DNA of 64,000 nt, from the sequence record PV159336; one strand, 5' to 3'. This document shows, in pieces, positions 7,166 through 26,375 of the stretch (position 1 is its first letter; each line of letters starts with the position of its first letter). The notes under the pieces were generated by a model. It had not been told where the DNA came from. It saw only the letters and a list, made by a program, of their open reading frames with translations, and did not search any database. This DNA is from Escherichia phage W22. The position numbers and the translations under genes are program-made.

Positions 7166-8176
7166 ATGGCAGAAGAAAGAAATTACACAAAAGCTCCTGC
7201 ACCAAATCTAAACAGAGCATACAAACTGTTAATAGGTACAGCTACTAATACTAAAGAAAAAAGGACAAAAAATTCCTCTTTCAAATCTACAGTAGACTTA
7301 GATACTAAACTAGGGGATGCTAAAAAATCAACCCCTAATTTGTATGTTATTACGGAGCACCAAATATCTTTCACAATAAGAAAAGATAATAATAAAGATC
7401 CTAATCAAGCCGAGATAACTATTTATAACCTAAGTGATGATACTGTTAATTATATTAACAAAGGTATTCGTAACAACTTGGCTGTTGCTTTGGCAGTAGG
7501 TTATGAAGGTCAAGAGTTAATTATGATCTTTAAGGGAACGGTGCAGTGGGTGAGTGATACCTTTAACAATACAGACAGACGTACAGTGTTACATTGTCTG
7601 GATGGTGGTATTAACATCTCCGAAGCAAGGACAAGCAGAAGTTATCCGAAAGGTACAAAAGTAAGTAAGGTTGTTAAAGATTTAGTTAAAGATTTAGGTA
7701 CTACAGAAGGTAATATTCACGTAGATACAGAGAAAACTTTATCATCTGCAACAGCTATGTGTGGGAACACATCACATTACTTAGAAAGTATCTGTAAAGG
7801 TATTGATCATAATGTGTCAATACAAGACGGATCTGTTTACGTGACACCAAGATCACAAATGTCTAGTGCAAGATGTGCATATATTAGCGCAGAAACAGGT
7901 TTAATTGGTAGTCCAGAACCTTTCCACAATGATATTAAACCGACACAAAAAGTAACCAAATCTTCTAAGAAAGCTAAAAAGCCTACAGATGGTGTTAAGT
8001 TCAGATGTGAGATGAACGGTGCTATTTTACCAGAAAAAACTGTTTGGCTCAAGAGCCATAACTACGATGGTGGTTTTAAGGTGGTGTCTGTTGTTCATAC
8101 AGGCGATAGGGAAGGTAAAGACTGGACAACTGAAGTAGAGTCTGTATCTGTATCTGCAATTATTAAGAAGGGCTAG
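7166..8176 (+). CDS. putative baseplate hub/tail protein
   Basis: 336 aa, position between tape measure and spike gene; assignment by synteny only. Confidence 0.3.
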   Translation: MAEERNYTKAPAPNLNRAYKLLIGTATNTKEKRTKNSSFKSTVDLDTKLGDAKKSTPNLYVITEHQISFTIRKDNNKDPNQAEITIYNLSDDTVNYINKGIRNNLAVALAVGYEGQELIMIFKGTVQWVSDTFNNTDRRTVLHCLDGGINISEARTSRSYPKGTKVSKVVKDLVKDLGTTEGNIHVDTEKTLSSATAMCGNTSHYLESICKGIDHNVSIQDGSVYVTPRSQMSSARCAYISAETGLIGSPEPFHNDIKPTQKVTKSSKKAKKPTDGVKFRCEMNGAILPEKTVWLKSHNYDGGFKVVSVVHTGDREGKDWTTEVESVSVSAIIKKG

Positions 8177-8178
8177 AA

Positions 8179-8916
8179 ATGGATGCTTTAAATTTTGTAA
8201 CAGCAATCCGTGGATTAATCAACGAGCAAGTTGCGGAAGTACATACATCTTTACCTGTAAGGGTAATTGGTGTAGATTATGGATCTAAGACAGTAACTTT
8301 AGAATCTATCGTAAAGAATACCAGATCTACTGAAGATGAAATAGATTACCCAACATTCCACGATGTTCCTTTTATGGTAAATGGTGGTGGTACAGGTAGA
8401 ATTTCATTTCCAATTAAAGCAGGAGATATTGGTGTTGTTGTCTTTTCAGAAAGAGATCCGTCGAATGCTTTCCAGACAGACGGAGATACAGCCAGTAGCG
8501 GAACATTAATTCAACCTTGTGGTTTGTATCCAGCCTGTTTTATTCCTAAGATAGCAACAGCTACGGATTCTTCTGAAGAAGTAGATTCTGAAAAAGTTGT
8601 TATCTCAAATAATAAGCAAACTTACGCTTCGTTTGATCCTAACGGTAATATATCTGTGTACAACACACAAGGTATGAAAATAGATATGACACCAGACAGT
8701 ATCGTTCTTACTGATGCAGGAGGAGGAAAACTTACACTGCAAGGTGGGACTATGACATATAAAGGTGGTACTGTAAATTTAAACGGTTTAACAATCACAC
8801 CTGACGGTCGTATGAAAGATAGTGGTGGCATTGGTTTACACACACATACACACCCTGTACGCGGTGTTGAAACTGGTGGTAGCACTGTTACTTCCGACAA
8901 ACCAAATGGAGGTTAA
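8179..8916 (+). CDS. baseplate central spike protein (gpV/gp5-like)
   Basis: 245 aa; N-terminal region resembles gpV-type spikes, Gly-rich beta-rich C-terminus ending in His-rich tip (HTHTHP). Confidence 0.5.
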   Translation: MDALNFVTAIRGLINEQVAEVHTSLPVRVIGVDYGSKTVTLESIVKNTRSTEDEIDYPTFHDVPFMVNGGGTGRISFPIKAGDIGVVVFSERDPSNAFQTDGDTASSGTLIQPCGLYPACFIPKIATATDSSEEVDSEKVVISNNKQTYASFDPNGNISVYNTQGMKIDMTPDSIVLTDAGGGKLTLQGGTMTYKGGTVNLNGLTITPDGRMKDSGGIGLHTHTHPVRGVETGGSTVTSDKPNGG

Positions 8917-8919
8917 CAG

Positions 8920-9555
8920 ATGGGAATACCATTTGATTTAAAACTTGATGGTTCTAACGATTTAGTAATGGTGGATGGTGATTTAACACTAACCACAACT
9001 AAAAGTGAAATTGCAGCACAGACGCTTGGAATAACACTTAGAACTTTCCGTGGAGAATGGTTCCTCAATTCTAATTTTGGGGTTCCATATCTGCAAGAGA
9101 TTATTGGTGTTGCCAAGAAGAAAGAGATTGTTGATCGCATTTTCTTATCAACTATCGCAAGTAATGTTTATATAGATAATATTAATTCCTACACATCCTC
9201 TTATGATAGAGATGATAGGTATTACTCAATGAACGTTACTGTTACAGTTGGTGAACAAGTTGTTAGTGCGCTGTTCAGTACACAGCCGTCTGAAGAATAT
9301 ATCTATCCAGAAGCTGGTGATGATAATGCAGCAATCACTTGTGAAGCATTTGAAATTGTTGAATCTGCAAATAGACTCTATCGCTTTATTAACATTGTTG
9401 GTCTTCCTAGAAATACTTATTCTACTTGGTGGAATGAGTGGTCTAACGAGGCATTGATTGAAAAATACCTTGTTAACGAAGCCAATAAAGGTCTTGCAAC
9501 CAATTACAACTATGCTATAACAGCAACAATGGGAGCTACAAACAATAATGGCTGA
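8920..9555 (+). CDS. baseplate protein, GPW/gp25-like
   Basis: Motif TLRTFRGEWFLNSNFGVPY resembles GPW/gp25 family core (GER...P.FG); follows spike gene. Confidence 0.45.
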   Translation: MGIPFDLKLDGSNDLVMVDGDLTLTTTKSEIAAQTLGITLRTFRGEWFLNSNFGVPYLQEIIGVAKKKEIVDRIFLSTIASNVYIDNINSYTSSYDRDDRYYSMNVTVTVGEQVVSALFSTQPSEEYIYPEAGDDNAAITCEAFEIVESANRLYRFINIVGLPRNTYSTWWNEWSNEALIEKYLVNEANKGLATNYNYAITATMGATNNNG

Positions 9556-10021
9556 TTTAACTACAATCAAGGTGTCTGATCTACCTGTAACAACATCTGT
9601 TTCAGACACAGATTATTTTGTAACAGATCAATCGGGCATCACTAAGAAAACATCATTACGTGTTCTTCTTGCGGGTGCTGGTGTTACACGAAATCGTCTT
9701 TCTGCAAGGGGTACTGTTACAAACACCCTAGCTTTAGATATTAGTACGGCAGAGTATTTCTCTGCCACTTTATCTAGTCCAACTTGCAGTATTTCATTTA
9801 GTAATGTTCCAGTTACAACTAACATTGTTCAAAACTTTACTCTATCCCTACGTCAAGGAAGTGGAGCAAATAAAGTAACGTGGCCTCAATCTGTTAAATG
9901 GAGTTTTGGTCGCGCTCCTGTTTTGAGTTATAAACAGGGAGCTACAGATATTTTTGAATTTGTTAGTTATGATAATGGAGCTACCTGGATAGGTAGTTTA
10001 GTGATGGCAGGAGTGATTTAA
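9548..10021 (+). CDS. tail fiber-related protein with conserved N-terminal anchor motif
   Basis: N-terminus (TTIKVSDLPVTTSVSDTDYFVTDQSGITKKTS) parallels N-terminus of the EEP fiber at 15074. Confidence 0.4.
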   Translation: MADLTTIKVSDLPVTTSVSDTDYFVTDQSGITKKTSLRVLLAGAGVTRNRLSARGTVTNTLALDISTAEYFSATLSSPTCSISFSNVPVTTNIVQNFTLSLRQGSGANKVTWPQSVKWSFGRAPVLSYKQGATDIFEFVSYDNGATWIGSLVMAGVI

Positions 10022-12897
10022 TGTCAAGAATTAAGCACAGAATTGACAATGTTTTTCAACTGATCGATGGACATATTCAGTTCTTAGATCGTAATACAGG
10101 TTTAACTGTAGATCCTACAGTGCAACACTATGTATTAAACCCACAAAACGTTCTAGCTAATAACAGACACTTTATAAACTGGACTGCTCAAGAAGGGCAA
10201 CCAAACGGGGATGCTACAACAGAAGGTCAATCCGTGCTTATTCTTGGTTGCGCTTATGCATACCTAGCTTCCGGCGATACAAAGTATTTAGACTCTGCTA
10301 AAAAATATTGGCAAGCCTATATAGATTACTTCTTTGGTGGTCAGCCTATTCCAGATCCGCCAGCAAAATATCGCCCTAACTGGATTATTAACGGTAAAGA
10401 ACCACGTCTTGCGCACTATCCTCTTACAGATGATGGCTACCCTACACACGGAGGTTTTAAGGGTAGCTTAATGACGTGGACTAACGGTAGAACAGTTATT
10501 CCTCATGGTGCTCCACATTGGGGAGAATACCTTGACAAAGCATGGTTTGCTTTTAATGGTAATCTAGGATGGAACTCTGTAAACGCTACAGTATATGCTG
10601 TTAATGCAGATGGAACAACAGATTGGTCTAAGAATGGAGATCAATGGGATGTTGATTGGATCATTGATCGTCTAGGACGTAAAGTTGATTGGGATGGAAA
10701 TATCTTAGAAGAAGGTTTTCCAACATCTCAATACGGAACAGTTCAACTAAAAAATACTTCTGTAAACGGTACATATAAATTTAACTACGCGACTTGTAAC
10801 CCTGTTGAACACGGTGGTTATTTAATGGAGCGTAACACTATGTGGCATAACAGACCAGTTAACGTTCCGGTAGAAATGGGCTTTCAGGATAATGCGTCAG
10901 ATGCCGAAACTTGGTGGTGTGATGCTAATTACCTGATGTACCAAATTACAGGAGAAAGAAAATATTGGCTATGCTGGCAGTCTTCACTGTTAGTGTGTCA
11001 AGATTACTCAAACATTGATATGTTTGATAAATTCTTCCGTAAATCTACATATGCAACTATTCCGTTTACAGATGGCATCTCTTACGATTATTCGTATCCA
11101 TCTACAGCAATACCTAAATATTCAAGAGATACTTTAGGTTATATTGTTATTAGACAAGATGTTGCTGCTCAAACAACATTAGAACAGCAAGCCATTTGGT
11201 TTAAAGTGGATCAGAACTCTAAGTTACGAGTTCAGTTTCAAGGTGTAGATGACGCAGGACATGGTATTCTTTTCCGTCCAGAGTTGGAACTAAGTAAGAC
11301 CAAAGATGAAAATAACACAGTAACTTACCGTTGTGGCTTACCACTGGGTACAGCTAGTATGACAAGCATGGATATTCCATTATCCAGCTTTATGAGAAGC
11401 ACCCCTCCGAATGGTGGAACATATATTATCGCAGATCCGCGAATTATTGTTGACTGGGGTGGCAATACTGTGGTACAATTTAAGTATGTAACAGGTATTG
11501 CTGGAACTAATAATGACCAGATTGTTACTGCATCAATGGATACGGATGGTGGTATTACTGTTGGTTTTTGGTTAACTCCTACATCAAAAGCTAATGTTAA
11601 GTCTATTACATATAGAACATATGAAGATGACTTTAACATGACTATCACGGATGCTCAAGGTTGGAGATGGTGGGCTATGCTTCCTAAAACGCAAGGGGCA
11701 TGGAGTACGAAGACTTTATCAGCTTCTGATTTTAAGTTAAGTGCTTACCAGCCTAATCATCCAGAAACAGATCCTAAACCTTCAGCAATAAATCTTACTG
11801 CGGTAGACCAGGTAAATTTAGTTCTCGATACGGCTCCTGTCAATGGTTTAACAGGAACAATAGATTTCTATTGTATTAACGATGTACCTGAAAGATATTC
11901 GTCATCTTCTGGTGATGATTATACCATGTACTTCCGTATCACTGTACAGGCTTCAAGTCCTCATACTGCTAAATTAGGTGATTGTACTATTATTGACTAT
12001 AAGTTAAATAGTCTTAATTACACACCAGGAATAATTCCATTCTCTAATATCAGTGACCCAAACACTGCATTGTATGATGGCTGGCGTGGTATTCCATACC
12101 CAGGATACCAATACCCTTCCTTATACTGTTTTGCAGGTAGAGATATTGATTGGACGCGTTTAAATAACAGTATCAATTTCTTGTATGATGCTCAAATGTG
12201 GTTTTATAACACGTTTGATCCTGTGATGCCTGGGCCTATGGCACAAGCATATGTGTGGGATCGTTGGGATGCAAGAAAATACGGTGAACCTAATACGTTT
12301 ACAATGAAACACTGGAATGAAAAAGCGTGGGATGGTTATGAAGCTCGTGCATTCTACTGTGCTTGTCATGCTGTATACGAACTTGTACAAAGAGGAGAAA
12401 CACCTCCTGAAAAACTAGTAACTGTTTGTAAAAATTGGATCAACTACCTTAAATGGTTCCAAGACAATAATGATGGAAGAACACCAACTATCTTTAACCC
12501 AGATGGTACAGTTCTTGCACCTATAGATGACTTTACTAGTCATATGTCTGCACTGTTTATGGCGGGTTGTTCAATCATGGGCTTGGCAGGTTATGATTCA
12601 CAAATTCCAAACATTGGTATTGTAGCAGACAGATGTTTTGATCTGATTCAGCAAAACTATATTGTGCTTTCCCCTAACCATCCGATGAATGGTTCCTGGA
12701 GTGTTGCACCACGCCCAGATTCAGATAACGGAATGTTCTTTGGTTTCCATGCTGGAGAACTATTACGTGGTTTTGGTTTATATGCCTTGTATCGTAAACT
12801 AAACCCTCAAAACGCTTTACCAATTTTGGATAATAGTAACATACCAACACTAACTGTTCTAACTATGAATGATATTAGTGTTGATGTAACCAAATAA
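10021..12897 (+). CDS. large tail fiber/baseplate-associated protein (possible carbohydrate-active domain)
   Basis: 958 aa, Trp/Tyr-rich; N-terminal segment (GCAYAYLASGDTKYLDSAKKYW) loosely resembles (alpha/alpha)6-barrel glycosidase/lyase motifs. Confidence 0.4.
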   Translation: MSRIKHRIDNVFQLIDGHIQFLDRNTGLTVDPTVQHYVLNPQNVLANNRHFINWTAQEGQPNGDATTEGQSVLILGCAYAYLASGDTKYLDSAKKYWQAYIDYFFGGQPIPDPPAKYRPNWIINGKEPRLAHYPLTDDGYPTHGGFKGSLMTWTNGRTVIPHGAPHWGEYLDKAWFAFNGNLGWNSVNATVYAVNADGTTDWSKNGDQWDVDWIIDRLGRKVDWDGNILEEGFPTSQYGTVQLKNTSVNGTYKFNYATCNPVEHGGYLMERNTMWHNRPVNVPVEMGFQDNASDAETWWCDANYLMYQITGERKYWLCWQSSLLVCQDYSNIDMFDKFFRKSTYATIPFTDGISYDYSYPSTAIPKYSRDTLGYIVIRQDVAAQTTLEQQAIWFKVDQNSKLRVQFQGVDDAGHGILFRPELELSKTKDENNTVTYRCGLPLGTASMTSMDIPLSSFMRSTPPNGGTYIIADPRIIVDWGGNTVVQFKYVTGIAGTNNDQIVTASMDTDGGITVGFWLTPTSKANVKSITYRTYEDDFNMTITDAQGWRWWAMLPKTQGAWSTKTLSASDFKLSAYQPNHPETDPKPSAINLTAVDQVNLVLDTAPVNGLTGTIDFYCINDVPERYSSSSGDDYTMYFRITVQASSPHTAKLGDCTIIDYKLNSLNYTPGIIPFSNISDPNTALYDGWRGIPYPGYQYPSLYCFAGRDIDWTRLNNSINFLYDAQMWFYNTFDPVMPGPMAQAYVWDRWDARKYGEPNTFTMKHWNEKAWDGYEARAFYCACHAVYELVQRGETPPEKLVTVCKNWINYLKWFQDNNDGRTPTIFNPDGTVLAPIDDFTSHMSALFMAGCSIMGLAGYDSQIPNIGIVADRCFDLIQQNYIVLSPNHPMNGSWSVAPRPDSDNGMFFGFHAGELLRGFGLYALYRKLNPQNALPILDNSNIPTLTVLTMNDISVDVTK

Positions 12898-12905
12898 GGA
12901 AAATA

Positions 12906-15065
12906 ATGAAACAGGCTATTTTTACTGTAACTCGAAATACGAGAGTAAATGCCAGTTCATTCAGCTATAAGACCGTCGATGGAACGGCGGTCGCTGGTAG
13001 AGATTATGTAGCTAAACAGGGAACAGTAACGTTCCCTTCTGATGCAGATTCTGCTACTGTAGTGGTTGATGTATATGAACGTCCGGCAAACTCTTTAGAT
13101 CTTTATTTTACTCTTGAGATTACTAGCATAAGTCAAAATAACATGATGATCAACGAAGAAATTCGTTGTGTTATTACGACTGATCAATCGAATACAACCC
13201 CGCTAACTTGGCCTGTTGTGAAGTCTAGAATGTTTGATCCTAAGTTTTGGACAATAGATTCTCAAGCAACAGAAAGTTGTTCTATTATCTCTAATGGTGA
13301 TTCTTTCACAGCAAGAATGGTTAATAGGACAGTGGCTGGTCTTGCTGGGATTATTTGGTCAACTTACGATAAATATGATCACAAAGGATTAGGCTACCAA
13401 GAACATTCTGACTTAAGTAAAGAGAAACTTTGGTTTAAAATGGAACTTAGTCAAGGTGTTCCTGGATTAAAAGAAGAAAAATTAATACCATCCTTAACAG
13501 TGACACTGAAGGATGAAACAGTTCATTATGTATCTCTAAACTTTTATGCAGAAGAAGTTTCAGAGGATGGTAAAACAGCAACAATCAAACTAGATTTCTC
13601 AAATTTAAAATCTGGGCCAGAAAATGATATTGTTGTTGACACTACACAGATAGATAATATGTTCTTCTCCTTGATCTCAACGAGGTATCAAGAAATTGAA
13701 GATATTATTCCTGTAGACAATGAGGATCTTTCCTTTAAGTTTACCATACTGGAGCCTGATACTGGTTACAGTATGATGAATATGGGTAATTTAAATGTTC
13801 CAGCACACACCATAAGAATGTGTACATCTTATGATGATATGTATAACCTGACCCCAGAGCGAGTTATTTCTAACACCTACAGATTAGGTTATAGGGATAT
13901 GATTAACCACTATAATGGTATGTCACACTATTATCAGTTTAGTTGGGATGCTGGTTCTAATAAATGGGCTTTGAATAGAACAGAATATTTAAACCCAGCA
14001 ACAGAAGCATGGTTTGATAATTTCCACGCTAATGCAAAAGCTATGGGCTACACAGTAATGAATTCCTTAAGTTTTGAACTTATGAGTACAGTGTGTCCTG
14101 TAGAATGGGTACAACATACTTGGAATGATAATCTTGCTGCTACAGGTTATGAGCCACCAAGTTATGTTTTATCTCCTTCAATTGATGAAGGGATGAATTA
14201 TTTACAAGGTGTAATAAATAAGATAGCTTCTATATCCGCTGCTAATGATCTTCCGGTTATTATTCAGGTTGGTGAACCGTGGTGGTGGTATAACACAGCT
14301 ACCAATCTACCGTGTATTTATGATTATACAACCAAAGTTGCATTTAATAATGAAACTGGATTGTATGCACAAGATGTTGGTACAGTTAAAAATTATAAAA
14401 CTGGTACACCATATGATGAATATTATGCATTCCTATCTAAAACATTAGGACTGCGTGTTGCTAAATTTGCAACAGATACCAGATTAGCATATCCTGGAGC
14501 TAAAGTTACATTGTTACCATTTGTGCCATCCATTTTGGGTAACGGTATGATGGAATTTGTTAACTTCCCTAAAGATTATTATATCCCAGAAAACTTTGAC
14601 TTTTATTGTTCAGAATGTTATGATTGGTTGTTGGAAGGTAAGATGGAAAGATCTTTCGACGCTATCACAATACCTAATGAGCAACTAGGTTTTAGTTATG
14701 ATAAGATACATTATCTTGCAGGGTTTGTTCCAGATGCAACTCTAGCACCATTATATGGCTTTGATCCTGAATCAGACTACAGAACATATTTGTGGAAAAT
14801 GATTATAGGTAATATTGTATTGAATGACCAGAAGTTTGTTGGTTTATATCAATACATATGGGCTTATCCACAAATAATGCATGATTCAATAACTGTTCTT
14901 AATTCAAAATCCCAAGTTTTTTATATGGGTAATGTGCCTTTGAATTGCTATTTGCAAGATATCACTCTTAAACAGGTAAATGTTACGATTGCTACTATAA
15001 GCGGAATTACATTAGCCACTAAATCTGGAGAAGATTTAGTAACAACACAAAAATTTTATATATAG
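12906..15065 (+). CDS. large tail-associated protein with N-terminal Calx-beta-like domain
   Basis: 719 aa; N-terminal VDGTAVAGRDYVAKQGTVTFPSDADSATVVVDV...LYFTLEI fits Calx-beta pattern (G.A..G.DY...G.l.F). Confidence 0.4.
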   Translation: MKQAIFTVTRNTRVNASSFSYKTVDGTAVAGRDYVAKQGTVTFPSDADSATVVVDVYERPANSLDLYFTLEITSISQNNMMINEEIRCVITTDQSNTTPLTWPVVKSRMFDPKFWTIDSQATESCSIISNGDSFTARMVNRTVAGLAGIIWSTYDKYDHKGLGYQEHSDLSKEKLWFKMELSQGVPGLKEEKLIPSLTVTLKDETVHYVSLNFYAEEVSEDGKTATIKLDFSNLKSGPENDIVVDTTQIDNMFFSLISTRYQEIEDIIPVDNEDLSFKFTILEPDTGYSMMNMGNLNVPAHTIRMCTSYDDMYNLTPERVISNTYRLGYRDMINHYNGMSHYYQFSWDAGSNKWALNRTEYLNPATEAWFDNFHANAKAMGYTVMNSLSFELMSTVCPVEWVQHTWNDNLAATGYEPPSYVLSPSIDEGMNYLQGVINKIASISAANDLPVIIQVGEPWWWYNTATNLPCIYDYTTKVAFNNETGLYAQDVGTVKNYKTGTPYDEYYAFLSKTLGLRVAKFATDTRLAYPGAKVTLLPFVPSILGNGMMEFVNFPKDYYIPENFDFYCSECYDWLLEGKMERSFDAITIPNEQLGFSYDKIHYLAGFVPDATLAPLYGFDPESDYRTYLWKMIIGNIVLNDQKFVGLYQYIWAYPQIMHDSITVLNSKSQVFYMGNVPLNCYLQDITLKQVNVTIATISGITLATKSGEDLVTTQKFYI

Positions 15066-15073
15066 GAGTAAAA

Positions 15074-15988
15074 ATGTCAACTACAATTACTAATTTACCC
15101 GAAACATCAAAAGTTAATGGTTCAGATTACCTGGTTTTAGATCAATCTGATAAAACTGTTAAAAGCACAGTTTCCAACTTTCTTACTGACACTGGGGTGG
15201 TTAAAGATTACACTCGTCCTAATATCCGTCAGTTGATCCGCGACCGTGAGGAAGCATTGATCGGAAACAAGGTTCGCTTTGTAACATGGAACACTCAAGG
15301 ATATAACAGTGTGTACAAGTATTATGGAAAAGACTTCGCTAACCAACAACGTGTAACAGACTTGACAGAGTGGTTCCTTCGCATAGGGGCTGATTTTGTG
15401 GGATCACAAGAAGTCTGGTCTGTGCCAGATCAACCGGATAGATTCTTCGCACAATATCCGTATATTTCTGCTTTCCAGTCTATCTCTCTTTGGGAATCAT
15501 CGCTAGGACGCCGCTACGGAAACCTGGCAGTAGCTACACGCGCTTTGAACAACAGTACGTTTAAGATTTATGACTCTCAGCCTATCCCTGGTGACACCGA
15601 TAAGGAACTCCGTTCATATATCCGAACGGAAATGACGGTAGCAGGAACGACCATCGCAATCTACGTCACACACTTGTCTCTTAATCAGACACGCATAAAT
15701 GAAGAGATTGCCGAGTTGGGGCTGGCAATGCAGAACGACACAGCGACGCACATCGTTGTCATGGGGGACTGGAACACTAACACTGATACTGACTTCGCGC
15801 CGTTCACCGATCATGGATTCACTATGGTGAACAGGTTCGGTGAATTTAACACCAACAACGTTGGCAATACCTGGTATCTCGACCGAATTTTCTACAAAGG
15901 TTTCTCGGCTGAAGATGATCGCGGGGTCTTTGATACTCCTGTGTCACTTGGCGACCACAAGGCTCTCTATGTAGATCTGGTAATTTAA
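15074..15988 (+). CDS. tail fiber protein with endonuclease/exonuclease/phosphatase (EEP) domain
   Basis: Tail-fiber N-terminal anchor motif, then EEP-type motifs RFVTWNTQG, VVMGDWNT and C-terminal GDHKALYVDL. Confidence 0.6.
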   Translation: MSTTITNLPETSKVNGSDYLVLDQSDKTVKSTVSNFLTDTGVVKDYTRPNIRQLIRDREEALIGNKVRFVTWNTQGYNSVYKYYGKDFANQQRVTDLTEWFLRIGADFVGSQEVWSVPDQPDRFFAQYPYISAFQSISLWESSLGRRYGNLAVATRALNNSTFKIYDSQPIPGDTDKELRSYIRTEMTVAGTTIAIYVTHLSLNQTRINEEIAELGLAMQNDTATHIVVMGDWNTNTDTDFAPFTDHGFTMVNRFGEFNTNNVGNTWYLDRIFYKGFSAEDDRGVFDTPVSLGDHKALYVDLVI

Positions 15989-16000
15989 GGGGAAAGGAAA

Positions 16001-17308
16001 ATGAATTTACATACAATTGACGCAAACATACTTGACATGCAGGGGCTGCCTTTGGATCTCCGCATCAACAAGATGCTGTCAGACATCAACCGCCTGTATC
16101 AACGAGGGCAGGTTATACTGCTTACTAAGTTTGCTGATTTAGGTCTTGCTGACACCGAAGCTACAATGGCAAATGTGTTCGCTCGTATGCCTAATAACAC
16201 CATCTTTATGACTGAAGTTTACCGTGGTGTTCACACCAATTTCGACATGCCGACACTAATCAACGGTGCGAGATTATCTGGACGGTTGATTGTCTATGGT
16301 TCGTCCGAGTCAAGTAACAAATTGACTGCATACTTTCAGCAAGAAACAGGTTTGTGGACACGCCACCTGAACAAAGGTGCTGCCACAAATTATACCGATA
16401 CGGGATGGCATAAGATTGAAGTTCATGGTTTGCAAGAGGATCTAACCACAAGCTCTGTGACTAATCTTGAAAACAAGCTGTCAAACCTAAAAACGCCAGG
16501 CATCTATTACATAGCTGGTAGCATAATGTCACAATTCACAGACGTGCCCACAACAGGTTCAGGAGCATCACTGTGTGAAGTGACCTATATTCACCATCTG
16601 GCTGACACAATACAGACTTTGCGTACCAACGGGGTTGCTCAGACCGGGTGGCGTAGACAAATTTCTAACAATGGAACTGTTGGGGAATGGAAACAGGAGT
16701 TTGTTAGTGGCTCTCCTATGAATAGTTCGTCTACTATAAGTTTCGCCGGGGGAACTGTTTCTGGGACATTAACTACAAGGACGCTCCAACCTGAAAAAAC
16801 AGCAACCCACAACATCGGTTATGCTTCTGCTGCATACAATCAAGCGTATTTTCAGAATGCGCCCACAGTTGTTTCTGATGTGAATTATAAACTATTCATA
16901 GACGATATTCCTGACGATGTTTTGGATGCGTGGAGCACGGTTAACTACTATCAGTGGAAAATGAAAACTGCTGTTGCGGAGAAAGGTGAGGAAAAAGCGC
17001 GCCTTCATGTAGGTGTCCTTGCACAAGAAATCAAAGAGAAGTTTGAAGCTGCTGGTTTGGATGCAACCAAGTATGGCATTCTTATCTATGATTGTTGGGA
17101 AGCTGTTGAGGCTGTTGAATATAAACCTGCTGTATACGATCCAGATACTAACGAATTAATCTCTGAAGAAGTTCAGGCTGTTGAAGGACGTGAAGCAGGT
17201 GAGATCTGGATGGTGCGAATGGAAGAGTGTCTTGCTTTAGAAGCGGCACTGATGCGCCGGACTACAAAACGACTGGAAGATCGCATGGCTGCTCTGGAAG
17301 GCAAGTAA
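16001..17308 (+). CDS. tail fiber protein with C-terminal intramolecular chaperone (S74-like) domain
   Basis: 435 aa; C-terminal ARLHVGVLAQEIKEKFEAAGLD...YGIL segment resembles autoproteolytic chaperone domain of endosialidase-type fibers. Confidence 0.5.
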   Translation: MNLHTIDANILDMQGLPLDLRINKMLSDINRLYQRGQVILLTKFADLGLADTEATMANVFARMPNNTIFMTEVYRGVHTNFDMPTLINGARLSGRLIVYGSSESSNKLTAYFQQETGLWTRHLNKGAATNYTDTGWHKIEVHGLQEDLTTSSVTNLENKLSNLKTPGIYYIAGSIMSQFTDVPTTGSGASLCEVTYIHHLADTIQTLRTNGVAQTGWRRQISNNGTVGEWKQEFVSGSPMNSSSTISFAGGTVSGTLTTRTLQPEKTATHNIGYASAAYNQAYFQNAPTVVSDVNYKLFIDDIPDDVLDAWSTVNYYQWKMKTAVAEKGEEKARLHVGVLAQEIKEKFEAAGLDATKYGILIYDCWEAVEAVEYKPAVYDPDTNELISEEVQAVEGREAGEIWMVRMEECLALEAALMRRTTKRLEDRMAALEGK

Positions 17309-17311
17309 ATA

Positions 17312-17331
17312 AAGCCCCGCTTCGGCGGGGA
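17312..17331 (+). terminator. terminator-like hairpin after fiber gene
   Basis: CCCCGC-TTCG-GCGGGG perfect hairpin; weak T-tract on + strand. Confidence 0.4.
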
Positions 17332-17403
17332 ATTATAAAGGTACTATCATGGTCTTCATTACGATTCACACAAACTATGTCCTGCAAGCGCATGTCATCG
17401 CCA

Positions 17404-17539: not shown

Positions 17540-17689
17540 ATGAACGAAATGTTCTCCCAAGGCGGTATTGCCCCAGGTACTACTGCCATTAGTCTTAGTG
17601 CTGCTGTACTTGTGCATTCAGCGGGTTCTGTAGACCTTGGGGAATTAGCTGTATATCGTGATTTAAAAAGTAATGAGAACGCACTATGA
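17540..17689 (+). CDS. small hypothetical protein (49 aa), not in ORF track
   Basis: ATG at 17540 preceded by AAAGAGG; stop TGA overlaps ATG of next gene (ATGA coupling). Confidence 0.3.
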   Translation: MNEMFSQGGIAPGTTAISLSAAVLVHSAGSVDLGELAVYRDLKSNENAL

Positions 17690-17931
17690 GAAAATTTTTA
17701 ATAGGTATGTTCTGTACATATCCTGATAATAAAGTCAGTTCTACTAAAGTTTGGAATGCTATTGGTATGATTGTTATGTCCAGTATGTTTATTTATTTGG
17801 GAATTGATAAAGAAATTCCTGAATGGATGGGCTGGGCTTTTGTTTTTATGATCACACCATCTAGACTAATGAAGAATTTAATAGATTTACGTTGGGGCAG
17901 ATCACCTGCCCCTGATAAGGAGGATAACTAA
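17686..17931 (+). CDS. small membrane protein
   Basis: 81 aa with hydrophobic segments (IGMIVMSSMFIYLGI, WMGWAFVFMI); coupled to downstream baseplate gene. Confidence 0.4.
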   Translation: MRKFLIGMFCTYPDNKVSSTKVWNAIGMIVMSSMFIYLGIDKEIPEWMGWAFVFMITPSRLMKNLIDLRWGRSPAPDKEDN

Positions 17932-19418
17932 TGGCAGATTATGGTTTAACAGATGCTGGTTTTGTCATTCCAACATTTGATGATATTCTAAATAATTATA
18001 TGACAGCATTGAAAAACACTTTCGGTGCAGATACAGCTACATCTGAAGATACTGTCTTTGGTCAACTGTTTCGTATTATTGCATATACAGATTACACCCT
18101 TTGGGAAGGTATGCAAGGTGTTTACAATACCCAAACCTTAGATGGTGCAGAAGGTATTTACCTTGATGAAATCTTCTCTAAAAGAGGTTTTTATCGTAAA
18201 GCTGCTTCTGCTGGTAGTGGTTATGCTTATGTTAAATCTAACAATAAGGCAGCTTGGACTTATGAACTAAGCACAGATGTTTATTTTAATGCCGATAACG
18301 ATTTGACATATTATGTCAGTGCACCAACAATGTTGAATGCTAAGATTGGAGCATATACCATTTCTAAAGCAAACGCAACAGCTTCTGGTGAAACTTCTAT
18401 TACTTTCTACATTCAAAGTGCTATTGATGGTGGTCTTAACAGTAAAACACTAAGTCCTAGCAATACAAACTTTATTGTAGATCTCACGAATTTCATTAAA
18501 GCTAACGTATCAACAACAGATCGTGCTTTAGTATGGAATGATGCTAGTAATGTTTACATGGGTTATAATCCAGAAGATAATGTTAACCCAATAGGTCTAG
18601 TAACACCAGTGAAATTTTATGCATCCATTGCAATTGGTACAAAATGGAGTGAAATTCCAGTTACGTGTTCAGACGTTGGTTATAATCCAGTAGGTACAGA
18701 AAGTATTACAGGTATTTCTTCAACGTTTACAGGCTTTTTAGATACAGGTAACTTCTATCCGTTCTCTCCAGGTACAGATGTTGAAACAGATGCAGAATTC
18801 CGTTCTCGTTTCAATGATAATATGGATGAAGCTAATGCTGCTACTCGTGCTGCTATTGTTAAAGCTCTATTACTGACAGATGGTGTGACAAAGGTTAAGA
18901 TTTATGATAACCCTACACTACACGATCAGGAACATGCTCCAGCTATGACATTCCAGACTATTGTGTATGGTGGTACAGCAGAAGAAGTTGCACAGGTTAT
19001 TTATAATACTAAGCCTATTAACACCTTAACTTATGGTACGACAGCAATTACTATCATAACAGAAGATGGTGGTCAAGAAGTAATTCGTTTTTCTCCTGGT
19101 GATAATGCGGAATACTCACTTAAACTGGTATATCAAACTGGCAATGGTAGTGTGTTAAGTACAACAGAAAGGGAAAATATTGTTTCTGCTCTTGCAAACT
19201 TACAGGCTTACTTTGAATTAGGCTCAACAGTAACTAACGATCAGATAAAAGGTGTAATTTATTCTGCACTTGCGTTCGGACGCTTGACTTCTCTCCGTGT
19301 TTATGTTAAACTTAATACTGAGGATGACAGTAAATATAATGAGGGAGATATTACTCCAGCGTACAATGTTGTACCATCCTTTGACCTTGATAATATTTCC
19401 TACGAGTACGGAGTCTAA
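17931..19418 (+). CDS. baseplate J-like protein (gpJ/gp6 family)
   Basis: 495 aa; N-terminal region (GFVIPTFDDILNNYMTALKNTFGAD...LDGAEGIYLDEIFSKRG) resembles baseplate J family. Confidence 0.5.
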   Translation: MADYGLTDAGFVIPTFDDILNNYMTALKNTFGADTATSEDTVFGQLFRIIAYTDYTLWEGMQGVYNTQTLDGAEGIYLDEIFSKRGFYRKAASAGSGYAYVKSNNKAAWTYELSTDVYFNADNDLTYYVSAPTMLNAKIGAYTISKANATASGETSITFYIQSAIDGGLNSKTLSPSNTNFIVDLTNFIKANVSTTDRALVWNDASNVYMGYNPEDNVNPIGLVTPVKFYASIAIGTKWSEIPVTCSDVGYNPVGTESITGISSTFTGFLDTGNFYPFSPGTDVETDAEFRSRFNDNMDEANAATRAAIVKALLLTDGVTKVKIYDNPTLHDQEHAPAMTFQTIVYGGTAEEVAQVIYNTKPINTLTYGTTAITIITEDGGQEVIRFSPGDNAEYSLKLVYQTGNGSVLSTTERENIVSALANLQAYFELGSTVTNDQIKGVIYSALAFGRLTSLRVYVKLNTEDDSKYNEGDITPAYNVVPSFDLDNISYEYGV

Positions 19419-19420
19419 AA

Positions 19421-20050
19421 ATGGCAGTGAGTGTTGACCATGTGACAACGTGGGATAGTATCAATGAAGATGTTAAAGACCTACTGATTGAAGATTTTAA
19501 ATCTTCTCCGAACATTGTCAAACTACTCTATATCATTTCTAGCGAAAAACAAAAGATAGATCAGGCAATGATCTATCTTGCCAAACACCGCTTAATCTCT
19601 ACTGCAACTGGTAAGTATTTAGATCTTATTGGTGAAGAGATGGGGATGGAAAGAAATGGTGCTACGGATGAAGAGTATCGTACAATATTAAAAATCAGGG
19701 CTTATCGTGTTGCGTCTTCTGGTACGCGAGATGATATCATTGATATGTTCGCTCGTTTTACAGGAACAGAAAAAGAAACGATTAATACATACGTTGGATT
19801 AAATAAAACATTCGACGTATTCTTTTATAATTTGTGTCTACAATCCGATCAGGCAGTAGCACAGTTACTTAACGTTTTCCCGATCCTAAGTAGTTATCGC
19901 TTAGGTGCGAAAGCGGGTGCAGCCTTTGGTTTCACTTCCTACTATGCCACAAAGCCACCTCATGGTATAGGTGGTTTAGGTTCTCTTTACACAGAGGCTG
20001 AAGGAGATGATACAGGGCGAATGACTATGCTGATAGCTCAAATAGAATAA
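19421..20050 (+). CDS. putative baseplate/tail protein (gpI-like position)
   Basis: 209 aa ORF directly after J-like gene; synteny only. Confidence 0.3.
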   Translation: MAVSVDHVTTWDSINEDVKDLLIEDFKSSPNIVKLLYIISSEKQKIDQAMIYLAKHRLISTATGKYLDLIGEEMGMERNGATDEEYRTILKIRAYRVASSGTRDDIIDMFARFTGTEKETINTYVGLNKTFDVFFYNLCLQSDQAVAQLLNVFPILSSYRLGAKAGAAFGFTSYYATKPPHGIGGLGSLYTEAEGDDTGRMTMLIAQIE

Positions 20051-24413: not shown

Positions 24414-26375
24414 GTGATTTTAACACGTCCAAATAGTGCCATTGCAGACATGGTAGAGTCTCGCTATAGAAAGCGTAGAAGTTTTGCAAGTGGTTTTACC
24501 TTAAGAGATGCTCGTGAAGCATTGCTCTTTGAAGCTGACGGTAACTACTATCAGTGGAAAGGCTCTCTACCTAAAGTTGTACCTGCTAACTCTACTCCTA
24601 CATCTACTGGAGGGATTTCAGATACAGCTTGGAAAAATGTGGGTAATGCAGATGACATTGCTCAAATAGAATCAGAATTAGATGCTATTGAAGCTGAAAT
24701 TGAAGATCTTAGAGAATCCATCCCAGAAGCTGGTAAATCAGCTTACCAGATTGCCGTAGACAATGGTTTCCAAGGTACTGAGACACAGTGGTTGGCTTCT
24801 TTAAAAGGTGATCCAGGTGCTCCATTAAAGCTATTAGGGACACTATCTAATACCAACCAATTACCTACAAGTGGAAACAATGCAGGGGATGCATGGATTG
24901 TAGGCGAGAATATGTATGCTTGGGATGGTACTGCTTGGAGAAAAGTAAACTCACAGGGGCCAGAAGGTAAATCTGCTTATGAAGTATGGCTTGCAGCAGG
25001 AAATGAAGGTACAGAACTAGATTATCTTGCTTCAATTAAAGGTGATAAAGGGGAGCCTGGCCCAGAGGGGCCACAAGGTGTGCCAGGTAATAATGCTAAT
25101 GGTTTTGATTACCAAGGCGCAGCTAATTCCGTTTCAGATCTTCCTTCTGCATCTCATGGAAACACATCTCAAGCATGGAGTGTTGGTACATATCTATACG
25201 TGTCAAACGGTGTAGAATGGATCAATATGGGTGCTATAGTGGGGCCAAAAGGAGATAAAGGCGACAAAGGTGATAAGGGTAACACTGGTGATTCAGCTTA
25301 TCAAGTCTGGTTAAATGCTGGTAACGTTGGTACTATTGATGAATATATTGCCTCTCTGAAAGGAGAAAAAGGTGATAAGGGAGACAAGGGTGATCAAGGT
25401 GCACAGGGTATACAAGGCTTGACGGGGCCAACTGGTGCAGGGTTGACCATTATTGACATTCTTACTAGCACTTCTGAACTACCACAAACTGGAGAAGAGG
25501 GTGATGGTTATCTAATCAATAATGAACTTTGGGTCTGGTTGCAAGGAGCCACAGAGTGGACAAATGTTGGTCGTTTAGCTGGTACTCCAATCACTGCAAA
25601 AGGACACGTTGCGTCTGCAAGTGCACTTCCTCCTACAGCTAATTACGGTGATGCTTATCTGACGGAAGATACAGGTCATCTTTACATTTACACCTATGAT
25701 GAACAAACTCAAACTGCTGAATATGTAGATATGGGTAGTTTGAAAGGTGATAAGGGTGAAAAAGGTGACGCTGGTACTAACGGTACAGACGGTGCAACTT
25801 GGATTGTTAAAACAACAGATCCAATCTCTAGTGATGGTAAACAAGGTGATTATGCCTTTAATATCTCCACTGGCGAGGTGTTCTTAAAAACATCTGCAAC
25901 TGTCTGGACTTCTCAAGGTACACTACCTAGTATCACAGATGCACCTAGTGATGGTAAGACTTATGCTCGTAAAGATGGGGCATGGGAAGAACTCACTAAT
26001 TCTGTAGATGGTCAAGATATAGTTCCAACAAAAGTAACAACTAATTTTATAGAGGTTACAGCATATACCAACAATTCTGTTACAGGCGACTGGACACCTC
26101 CAGGAACACATAACATGAATGTGTTGAATCTTACTGGTAACTCTACTATAAAAGCATGGCCTGGTGTCGAAGATAGCACAAAACCTAAACCATTCTCTGC
26201 AATAGTTTATCTTATCCAAGATGCCACTGGAGGTCATACTGTTACTTTAGATCCATCTTACAAAGTAATTGGTTCTAGTGATATTAATACAGATCCTAAC
26301 GGAGTAACAATACTACAACTAACATATTGTGGTGTTGGCGATTACGTGGATGCTATTGTTGCTAAACGCACATAA
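24414..26375 (+). CDS. tail fiber protein with collagen-like triple-helix repeats
   Basis: 653 aa, GTG start after AAAGGAG; Gly-X-Y runs (GPKGDKGDKGDKGNTGD; KGEKGDKGDKGDQGAQGIQGLTGPTGAG) and three copies of a ~25-aa motif SAYq.w...G.eGT...YLASlKGd. Confidence 0.6.
   Translation: MILTRPNSAIADMVESRYRKRRSFASGFTLRDAREALLFEADGNYYQWKGSLPKVVPANSTPTSTGGISDTAWKNVGNADDIAQIESELDAIEAEIEDLRESIPEAGKSAYQIAVDNGFQGTETQWLASLKGDPGAPLKLLGTLSNTNQLPTSGNNAGDAWIVGENMYAWDGTAWRKVNSQGPEGKSAYEVWLAAGNEGTELDYLASIKGDKGEPGPEGPQGVPGNNANGFDYQGAANSVSDLPSASHGNTSQAWSVGTYLYVSNGVEWINMGAIVGPKGDKGDKGDKGNTGDSAYQVWLNAGNVGTIDEYIASLKGEKGDKGDKGDQGAQGIQGLTGPTGAGLTIIDILTSTSELPQTGEEGDGYLINNELWVWLQGATEWTNVGRLAGTPITAKGHVASASALPPTANYGDAYLTEDTGHLYIYTYDEQTQTAEYVDMGSLKGDKGEKGDAGTNGTDGATWIVKTTDPISSDGKQGDYAFNISTGEVFLKTSATVWTSQGTLPSITDAPSDGKTYARKDGAWEELTNSVDGQDIVPTKVTTNFIEVTAYTNNSVTGDWTPPGTHNMNVLNLTGNSTIKAWPGVEDSTKPKPFSAIVYLIQDATGGHTVTLDPSYKVIGSSDINTDPNGVTILQLTYCGVGDYVDAIVAKRT
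25038..25439 (+). repeat. collagen-like Gly-X-Y triplet repeats (interrupted) inside tail fiber CDS
   Basis: Repeated GGTGATAAAGG/GGAGAAAAAGG codon units encoding G-D-K/G-E-K triplets. Confidence 0.55.

Follow-up and report, generated by a model that had tools for sequence, protein, structure and literature searches.

Two apparently paralogous N-terminal anchors in the fibre cluster of a phi92-like Escherichia coli phage, with probable module exchange behind one of them

Using the sequence of Escherichia phage W22 (record PV159336), we analysed the whole 64-kb stretch, called the window below, in which a phi92-like myophage encodes its baseplate and fibres, and found that the first ~43-49 residues encoded by two of its tail genes appear to be paralogous copies of one small N-terminal module. 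One of these genes encodes a constant 157-amino-acid (aa) protein corresponding to gp140 of phage phi92, and the other, which lies in the slot of the phi92 endosialidase gene gp143, encodes a 304-aa protein with an EEP phosphoesterase domain behind the shared module. It is likely that recombination right after codon 43 replaced everything downstream in the slot gene by a two-gene cassette of another phage lineage, and that this gene encodes an exchangeable receptor-binding protein; our confidence, which is good, applies jointly to the homologous anchor and to the core of the module exchange. Gene names of the gpNNN-like type were assigned in the window through synteny with phi92 and PD114. The 9000-15203 segment shows 98% DNA identity to phi92-like myophages (PD114, PD06, phi92 and others), and the source of the window is best placed among the phi92-like E. 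coli myophages (Stephanstirmvirinae, Justusliebigvirus group).

Homology of the two N-termini

An earlier note on this DNA had described a motif (DY-hydrophobic-V-x-DQS...TKK/S) shared by the N-termini of the gene products starting at 9548 and 15074. Both open reading frames (ORFs) are as that note gave them, 9548-10021 (+, 157 aa) and 15074-15988 (+, 304 aa). In BLASTP, a gap-free alignment joins residues 9-49 of the 157-aa protein to residues 5-45 of the 304-aa protein (15/41 identities, 26/41 positives, E=3e-6), and in an all-against-all BLASTP comparison of 12 proteins from the tail cluster this pair is the sole significant cross-similarity. The alignment with shuffled controls, which the note had proposed as a check, gave a Smith-Waterman score of 75 for the anchor pair, compared to 26.0 +/- 5.1 over 20,000 shuffles; the maximum among the shuffles was 57, none reached 75 (z ~9.6), and the outcome was unchanged when the full-length proteins were used. 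An additional control was a family profile built without both window sequences. Compared to the six-frame translation of the 64 kb, this profile produced two matches only, 58.1 bits for the gp140-like protein and 55.2 bits for the slot protein, and both window anchors match the independent profile at about 1e-16 to 1e-17. The shared motif was thus borne out by BLASTP, shuffles and profile; it is real, although it represents merely the core of a larger shared N-terminal module of ~42 residues.

A resemblance due to chance or to composition, i.e., to N-termini rich in Thr, Ser and Asp, might be suspected for a segment of 41 residues with an identity of just 37%. We consider this explanation exceedingly improbable, because none of the 20,000 shuffles reaches the real score, because the independent profile matches both proteins and nothing else in the window, and because the same pairing of a short and a long anchor protein is seen again in other genera. 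In the DNA of the two anchor segments 67/123 positions are identical (54%), with no long identical run; such a low identity is indicative of an old paralogy retained at the protein level, and not of a recent duplication.

The features that carry the argument are the following:

9548-10021 (+): gp140-like mini-fibre, 157 aa, anchor plus C-terminal tip domain
9548-9694 (+): anchor copy 1, residues 1-49 (BLASTP, shuffles, family profile 58.1 bits)
9707-10018 (+): predicted tip domain of the gp140-like protein, residues ~54-157 (PHROG C-terminal matches)
15074-15988 (+): 304-aa EEP ORF in the slot of the phi92 gp143 endosialidase
15074-15202 (+): anchor copy 2, residues 1-43 of the gp143-slot gene (family profile 55.2 bits)
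15203-15988 (+): EEP phosphoesterase module, residues 44-304 (PF03372)
16001-17308 (+): partner fibre, 435 aa, with a C-terminal Peptidase_S74 domain, an intramolecular chaperone (PF13884 at 3.7e-11)
15203-17366 (+): two-gene cassette of EEP module, fibre and hairpin (DNA comparison with L008, phi92 and PD114)
17315-17330: hairpin of the cassette

The search for this N-terminus in related phage fibres, also suggested in the earlier note, was carried out using a profile from seven N-termini, which was compared to 1.84 billion representative proteins. It retrieved 120 protein clusters at E<=1e-3, with the module almost always at residue 1 and with the consensus MAxIKISELPxAxxVxxxDYLVVDQxDxTKKxT (~42 aa); among the 109 clusters in which the match was clear, 103 have a first anchor copy that begins at one of residues 1-12. 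The domains found downstream include beta-helix, pectate lyase, alginate lyase, Collar and SASA esterase. A PF18668 neck is present in 20/60 proteins of the family, while a domain scan of the family proteins found the anchor itself to be covered by no Pfam model. The number of anchor-bearing genes per related genome varies from 1 to 4. A test for concerted evolution was mixed: the anchor pairs within a genome are mutual best matches in Seunavirus and Mydovirus, and are not in phi92 or rV5. Like its two copies in the window, the anchor module is likely to be the part by which trimeric fibres are attached to the virion in phages of the phi92, rV5, PVP-SE1 and Mydo types, as well as in many uncultured relatives.

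The mini-fibre and the exchange slot

The 157-aa protein is identified by comparison as the orthologue of phi92 gp140. Its first 55 residues are 100% identical to those of phi92 gp140, its match to PHROG 9017 ('tail fiber protein') reaches 1.3e-69 and covers 1-157 of 159 positions, and its gene stands after the sheath initiator gene, as in phi92 and PD114. The orthologues are 71-99% identical and have a constant length of ~157 aa. The C-terminal ~100 residues match the C-terminal ends of PHROGs 7760, 22179, 24774, 32568, 27998 and 3904, in the last case at positions 957-1083 of a 1086-position profile; in another protein (P0020) the gp140-like tip domain stands behind the anchor and a PF18668 neck. 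The short orthologues of rV5 and Seunavirus (222-224 aa) have an additional PF18668 neck, and both this neck and the anchor are common to them and their long paralogue. No match to PF18668 (Tail_spike_N, the TSP1/Gp66 neck with the segment '...Y.W.G.LPK.VP..STP..TGG.G..W') was found in either window anchor protein at E<=0.1; many relatives of the slot protein do have this neck. The order of a short anchor protein, a gp141-like protein and a long anchor-bearing fibre is kept in phi92, rV5 and SalP219 (a PVP-SE1-like Seunavirus). Because the tip domain matches fibre PHROGs, because the length of the orthologues is constant and because those of rV5 and Seunavirus differ by an extra neck, the gp140-like protein is predicted to be a constant, shortened but complete mini-fibre (anchor and tip domain), and not a truncated remnant. 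The earlier view of this protein as a decapitated fibre or an adaptor does not agree with an orthologue of PHROG 9017 that has a conserved tip domain and is invariant among relatives.

The slot gene is different. Residues 1-43 of its product are 93-100% identical in ~80 phi92/phAPEC8-like phages, and most alignments of the slot protein to these relatives end at residue 43. The annotations of the relatives include endosialidase, tail spike, lateral tail fibre, phosphodiester glycosidase and others, and the domains that follow residue 43 include endosialidase, GDPD, pectate-lyase-like and others. For example, the similarity of the slot protein to gp143 is limited to the first 43 residues (93% identity), and the remainder is PF03372, with no endosialidase catalytic domain. 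The junction is sharp at the DNA level, too: phi92, PD114 and the window run in register without a difference through GGGGTGGTT (codon 43, 15202), then the sequence of the window is different, and PD114-like sequence starts again at 17367.

The inserted segment has relatives elsewhere. Window 15202-17284 shows 86.5% DNA identity over 2083 bp to positions 8348-10429 of a metagenomic contig (L008). The EEP protein encoded there (P0022) has an EEP module with 92% protein identity behind a P22-type head-binding domain, and the gene that follows it in this contig (9146-10483) encodes a fibre of 445 aa, with 87% identity to the 435-aa fibre of the window. In the siphoviruses BEK2 and BEK3 the same gene pair makes up the locus of the lateral fibre, and the second gene is 57.5% identical in BEK2 (L003 4770-5978). 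In other phages the EEP module stands behind P22-type, G7C-type, Drexlerviridae lateral-fibre, T7-like gp17 and short 'MSKLRVDQLSP' anchors; the T7-like gp17 fibres with a terminal EEP module belong to Citrobacter phages. The combination of this anchor with an EEP module has no record among 50,697 phage genomes, and a metagenomic protein (P0021) is 98% identical to the 304-aa chimera of the window. The claim in the earlier note that the shared N-terminus marks module exchange holds for the 15074 gene, given the junction, the ~80 relatives and the presence of EEP modules on at least five other anchors. Its description of this gene as an EEP fibre was correct with respect to the domain and incomplete with respect to the locus, which is a two-gene cassette with a second fibre gene.

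Residues 70-295 of the 304-aa protein match PF03372 over positions 1-225 of 225 (4.3e-12, 46.7 bits, cut-off 24.5). The residues WN72-73, QE112-113, TH199-200, DWN232-234 and DH294-295 are invariant in 8 EEP homologues, and we take WN/QE/TH/DWN/DH to be the EEP catalytic motifs, from general knowledge of the superfamily. Judged by these motifs, the EEP module is predicted to be catalytically intact. The AlphaFold model of the EEP protein is moderate (predicted local distance difference test, pLDDT, 62; predicted template modelling score, pTM, 0.67), and its top Foldseek matches are TDP2, neutral sphingomyelinase and Bt3783, a mannosyl-6-phosphatase of Bacteroides, with E down to 5e-12. The domain may act on a surface glycan by cleaving its phosphodiester links. 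No paper on tail fibres with EEP domains was found when the literature was searched.

The N-terminus of the 435-aa partner fibre has no similarity to the anchor and contains no recognisable virion anchor. In the window, in L008 and in BEK2/BEK3, three phage backgrounds that are unrelated, a fibre of this type always comes after an EEP-domain gene, and the anchor encoded by that first gene differs among the three. Because the pair always moves together, while only the first gene changes its anchor, the 435-aa fibre would be carried by the EEP protein; the anchor-less fibre would thereby ride on its partner, and the two proteins would form a branched fibre.

The docking site

The earlier note had both proteins docking at the same baseplate site, which may be so but is an inference. 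The gp140-like protein and the slot protein are presumably both present in one virion, and in that case either several equivalent sockets or a shared occupancy would be needed. The 43-residue module by itself may suffice to mount a new module on the particle, and the socket may be a core component of the baseplate; for this role the outer part of the gp145/gp146 wedge is a likelier candidate than gp141 or gp142. The genes concerned and their neighbours are listed here:

7166-8176: hub, gp137-like (synteny with phi92/PD114)
8179-8916: central spike, gp138-like (synteny with phi92/PD114)
8920-9555 (+): sheath initiator, gp139-like, with an 8-nt overlap between its stop and the gp140-like start (synteny)
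10021-12897 (+): gp141-like tail protein, 958 aa (PHROG 2871; synteny with phi92, rV5 and Seunavirus)
12906-15065 (+): gp142-like protein, 719 aa (Calx-beta and N4 gp64/gp65-type TIM barrel)
17686-17931: gp144-like gene (synteny)
17931-20050 (+): gp145-like and gp146-like wedge proteins, the favoured candidate for the socket

The gp139-type protein is a sheath initiator according to the electron cryo-microscopy (cryo-EM) study of phi92 (2026, PMC13450770). In the same study fibre I is attached to the C-terminal domain of gp145, and fibre II was left unassigned to a gene. It should be noted that the text of this source describes a wedge of one gp145 and two gp146 conformers, while the legend of its Fig 3J names gp145-i, gp145-o and gp146; the stoichiometry of the wedge, which is relevant to the number of sockets, is therefore ambiguous in the source.

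The comparison of loci is informative with regard to the socket. In the Logan contig SRR23814683_22503 (L011), the baseplate proteins of which are 57-73% identical to those of the window, the gene order is gp139-like sheath initiator, anchor-bearing fibre (P0089), gp144-like, gp145-like and gp146-like (7381-12045 region), and homologues of gp140, gp141 and gp142 are absent from the 17.7 kb examined. An anchor fibre beside the wedge genes, in a locus without gp140-142, favours a socket on the core wedge over one on the gp141 scaffold, and we put this preferred reading at about even chances. Another anchor-bearing protein (P0091) has the same downstream neighbours as the L011 fibre. The contig, with its single anchor fibre, resembles a simpler version of the phi92 fibre apparatus. 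A Mydovirus locus, that of Klebsiella phage vB_Kpn_K45PH128C2 (L005 2165-11229), has 3-4 consecutive anchor genes encoding proteins of 250, 616, 1131 and, with a weak match, 277 aa, and gp141 and gp142 were not detectable there by BLAST. The deposited annotation of this region, with many short pseudogene fragments, is at odds with the long ORFs. A tblastn match inside a 'quorum-sensing-regulated virulence factor' of K45PH128C2 was set aside as an annotation fault, since the ORFs at this place are anchor-bearing fibres.

Two other explanations have to be weighed against docking on the core wedge. According to one of them, the docking partner is an accessory scaffold whose gene or genes lie between those of the two anchor proteins, i.e., a gp141 trimer, possibly with gp142. 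Such a scaffold would provide gp140 and the exchangeable protein with two homologous sites on a branched fibre, as in T4 gp10 with gp11/gp12 or in the tailspike complexes of CBA120 and G7C. The order of a short anchor protein, a ~900-aa gp141-like protein and a long anchor protein, kept in phi92, rV5 and Seunavirus, would fit such a scaffold, and so would the architecture seen in phi92, where fibre I is L-shaped, an unidentified arm carries the endosialidase and fibre II branches from its base (PMC13450770). However, the L011 anchor fibre adjoins wedge genes at a locus with no homologues of gp140, gp141 or gp142, and the Mydovirus locus combines 3-4 anchor genes with gp141 and gp142 that are not detectable by BLAST. 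In addition, Pfam showed no T4 gp10-like domain in gp141 or gp142, and BLASTP neither an internal duplication nor a mutual similarity; an internal duplication hinting at paired sockets was found by BLASTP in none of gp141, gp142 and gp145. Docking on the gp141 scaffold was therefore considered and down-weighted on account of L011 and the Mydovirus locus, and we regard it as the main rival, though a rather unlikely one. The other explanation sees in the shared unit above all a small repeatable beta unit for folding or trimerisation that starts fibre assembly, in which case its conservation would be silent on a common docking site. Tandem copies of the unit speak for it: 19/109 clusters, including P0062, P0067, P0070, P0083 and P0108, have 2-5 tandem ~40-residue units at the N-terminus, and a weak AlphaFold model hints at a beta-beta-beta-helix unit. 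Conversely, 103/109 clusters have the first copy at their very N-terminus, the anchor is 93-100% identical across ~80 phages while everything downstream is replaced, the recombination junctions lie directly after it, the pattern is that established for attachment domains (PMC10408124), and the swapped modules come with their own oligomerisation determinants. A role confined to folding is thus improbable.

Several observations weigh against the preferred explanation. The tandem copies suggest that the anchor unit is a repeatable fold that need not always be a terminal plug. The order gp140-gp141-receptor-binding protein conserved in three genera would also fit docking on gp141, and L011 is just a 36-kb contig, so that homologues of gp141 and gp142 could be elsewhere in the genome. 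The gp140 protein could not be placed in the phi92 cryo-EM study (PMC13450770). Sequence and profile searches of PDB with both proteins and two anchor profiles found nothing significant; the top phage-related match, to residues 29-56 of crAss001 gp22 (E=0.069), is outside the modelled residues 1-26 and structurally uninformative. For the gp140-like protein, AlphaFold gave a monomer model too poor to be used (pLDDT 43).

Some neighbours of the two anchor genes deserve a separate description. No Pfam family and no PDB relative was found for the gp141-like protein. The gp142-like protein matches PF23845 at 9.7e-82, in addition to PF23844 and PF03160 (Pfam), and matches Gp64 of PDB 9lc0 at 1.2e-26. 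Its parts are a Calx-beta domain and, from the 'non-contractile tail sheath' family of N4, the N-terminal domain and the TIM barrel; it matches both Gp64 and the sheath protein of the recent N4 structures (PDB 9lc0); this similarity ties the phi92 fibre set to the receptor-binding apparatus of N4. Between the swapped cassette and the gp144-like gene, a 49-aa ORF (MNEMFSQGGIAPGTTAISLS...) at 17540-17689 (+) is an internally deleted version of a 102-aa 'tailspike protein' of PD114, which itself comprises no more than the N-terminal anchor of a tailspike of the G7C/Kuttervirus type and begins like another protein in the comparison (P0023). The ORF at 17540-17689 looks like an orphan anchor fossil. 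Further downstream, a 653-aa ORF at 24414-26375 (+) has an N-terminus with a PF18668-type neck motif (YYQWKGSLPKVVPANS), without the phi92-type anchor; it is one more protein of the cluster that resembles a tailspike, and its attachment end is of another kind.

Comparison with known systems and implications

Gene order, ribosome-binding site and upstream DNA are the same in the window and in the gp140/gp143 region of phi92. The content of the slot differs: phi92 gp143, an endosialidase of 918 aa, has a C-terminal chaperone domain of its own, whereas the slot in the window contains the 304-aa EEP protein and a separate 435-aa fibre. Phage phi92 was reportedly described by Schwarzer et al. in 2012. 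No statement of the paralogy of gp140 and the slot protein was found in the literature searched, which excluded this 2012 paper.

Branched receptor-binding complexes include T4 gp10 with gp11/gp12, TSP1-4 of CBA120 and gp63.1/gp66 of G7C, and a two-gene type of lateral tail fibre is represented by LtfA/LtfB of T5-like phages. The window resembles the branched complexes of T4, CBA120 and G7C (PMC11414711) in that several fibres would be attached via short homologous N-termini to few sockets; a T4 gp10-like docking domain was not detected in gp141 or gp142 by Pfam, and the socket here may be the wedge itself. The two-gene lateral fibres of BEK2/BEK3 (PMC8594841) are similar in having a fibre that ends in EEP, followed by a ~400-aa fibre with an S74 chaperone (57% identity), and in carrying the virion anchor on the first gene only. 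In contrast, the first protein of BEK2 (505 aa) has a long N-terminal part with coiled coil and PF18668, and the window has a 43-residue myophage anchor instead. The Pa223 gp52 spike (bioRxiv 10.1101/2025.06.11.659172) is located on the capsid and has a long triple beta-helix, whereas gp140 has no such helix; no PDB chain, gp52 included, was matched by the anchor profile.

A conserved anchor combined with a swapped receptor-binding domain was described in eight genera of E. coli phages, including Justusliebigvirus (PMC10408124), and the same principle applies to the lateral fibres of Drexlerviridae (PMC8594841) and to the tailspikes of Gamaleyavirus (PMC11990801). The window shares with these tailspikes and fibres an anchor that is conserved within the lineage, a sharp junction, and a C-terminal module common to unrelated families. 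It differs from them in that the same type of anchor is also found on a second gene that does not exchange, and from most of its relatives in that the junction directly follows the minimal 43-residue anchor, without the 'LATQLKDTDG...' linker and the PF18668 neck. The swap principle is thus already well documented, and the case in the window is largely expected. Three points are additional here: the constant gp140 and the exchangeable slot protein are explicitly paralogous, the anchor family is broad and has no Pfam model, and in a natural chimera the anchor is cut down to 43 residues.

The phi92-like phages are valued for their very broad host range, and the assignment of genes to fibres is still unclear (PMC8594841; PMC13450770). 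The same plug on gp140 and on the slot protein provides a concrete hypothesis for locating both of them on the baseplate. In its most extended form, which we consider improbable, the ~42-residue module would be a portable plug, the socket at the gp145/gp146 periphery would take any plug-bearing trimer, and gp140 would be an occupant or the base of phi92 fibre II. If so, genomes with 1-4 plug genes would have several equivalent sockets per wedge or competitive loading. Competitive loading would produce virions with mixed fibre sets, i.e., a bet-hedging of host range. The 43 residues would then be a sufficient transferable tag for mounting arbitrary modules on such broad-host-range myophages. 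The chimera in the window also appears to map the minimal transferable anchor to 43 residues, which may be usable for engineering receptor-binding modules onto phi92-like phages.

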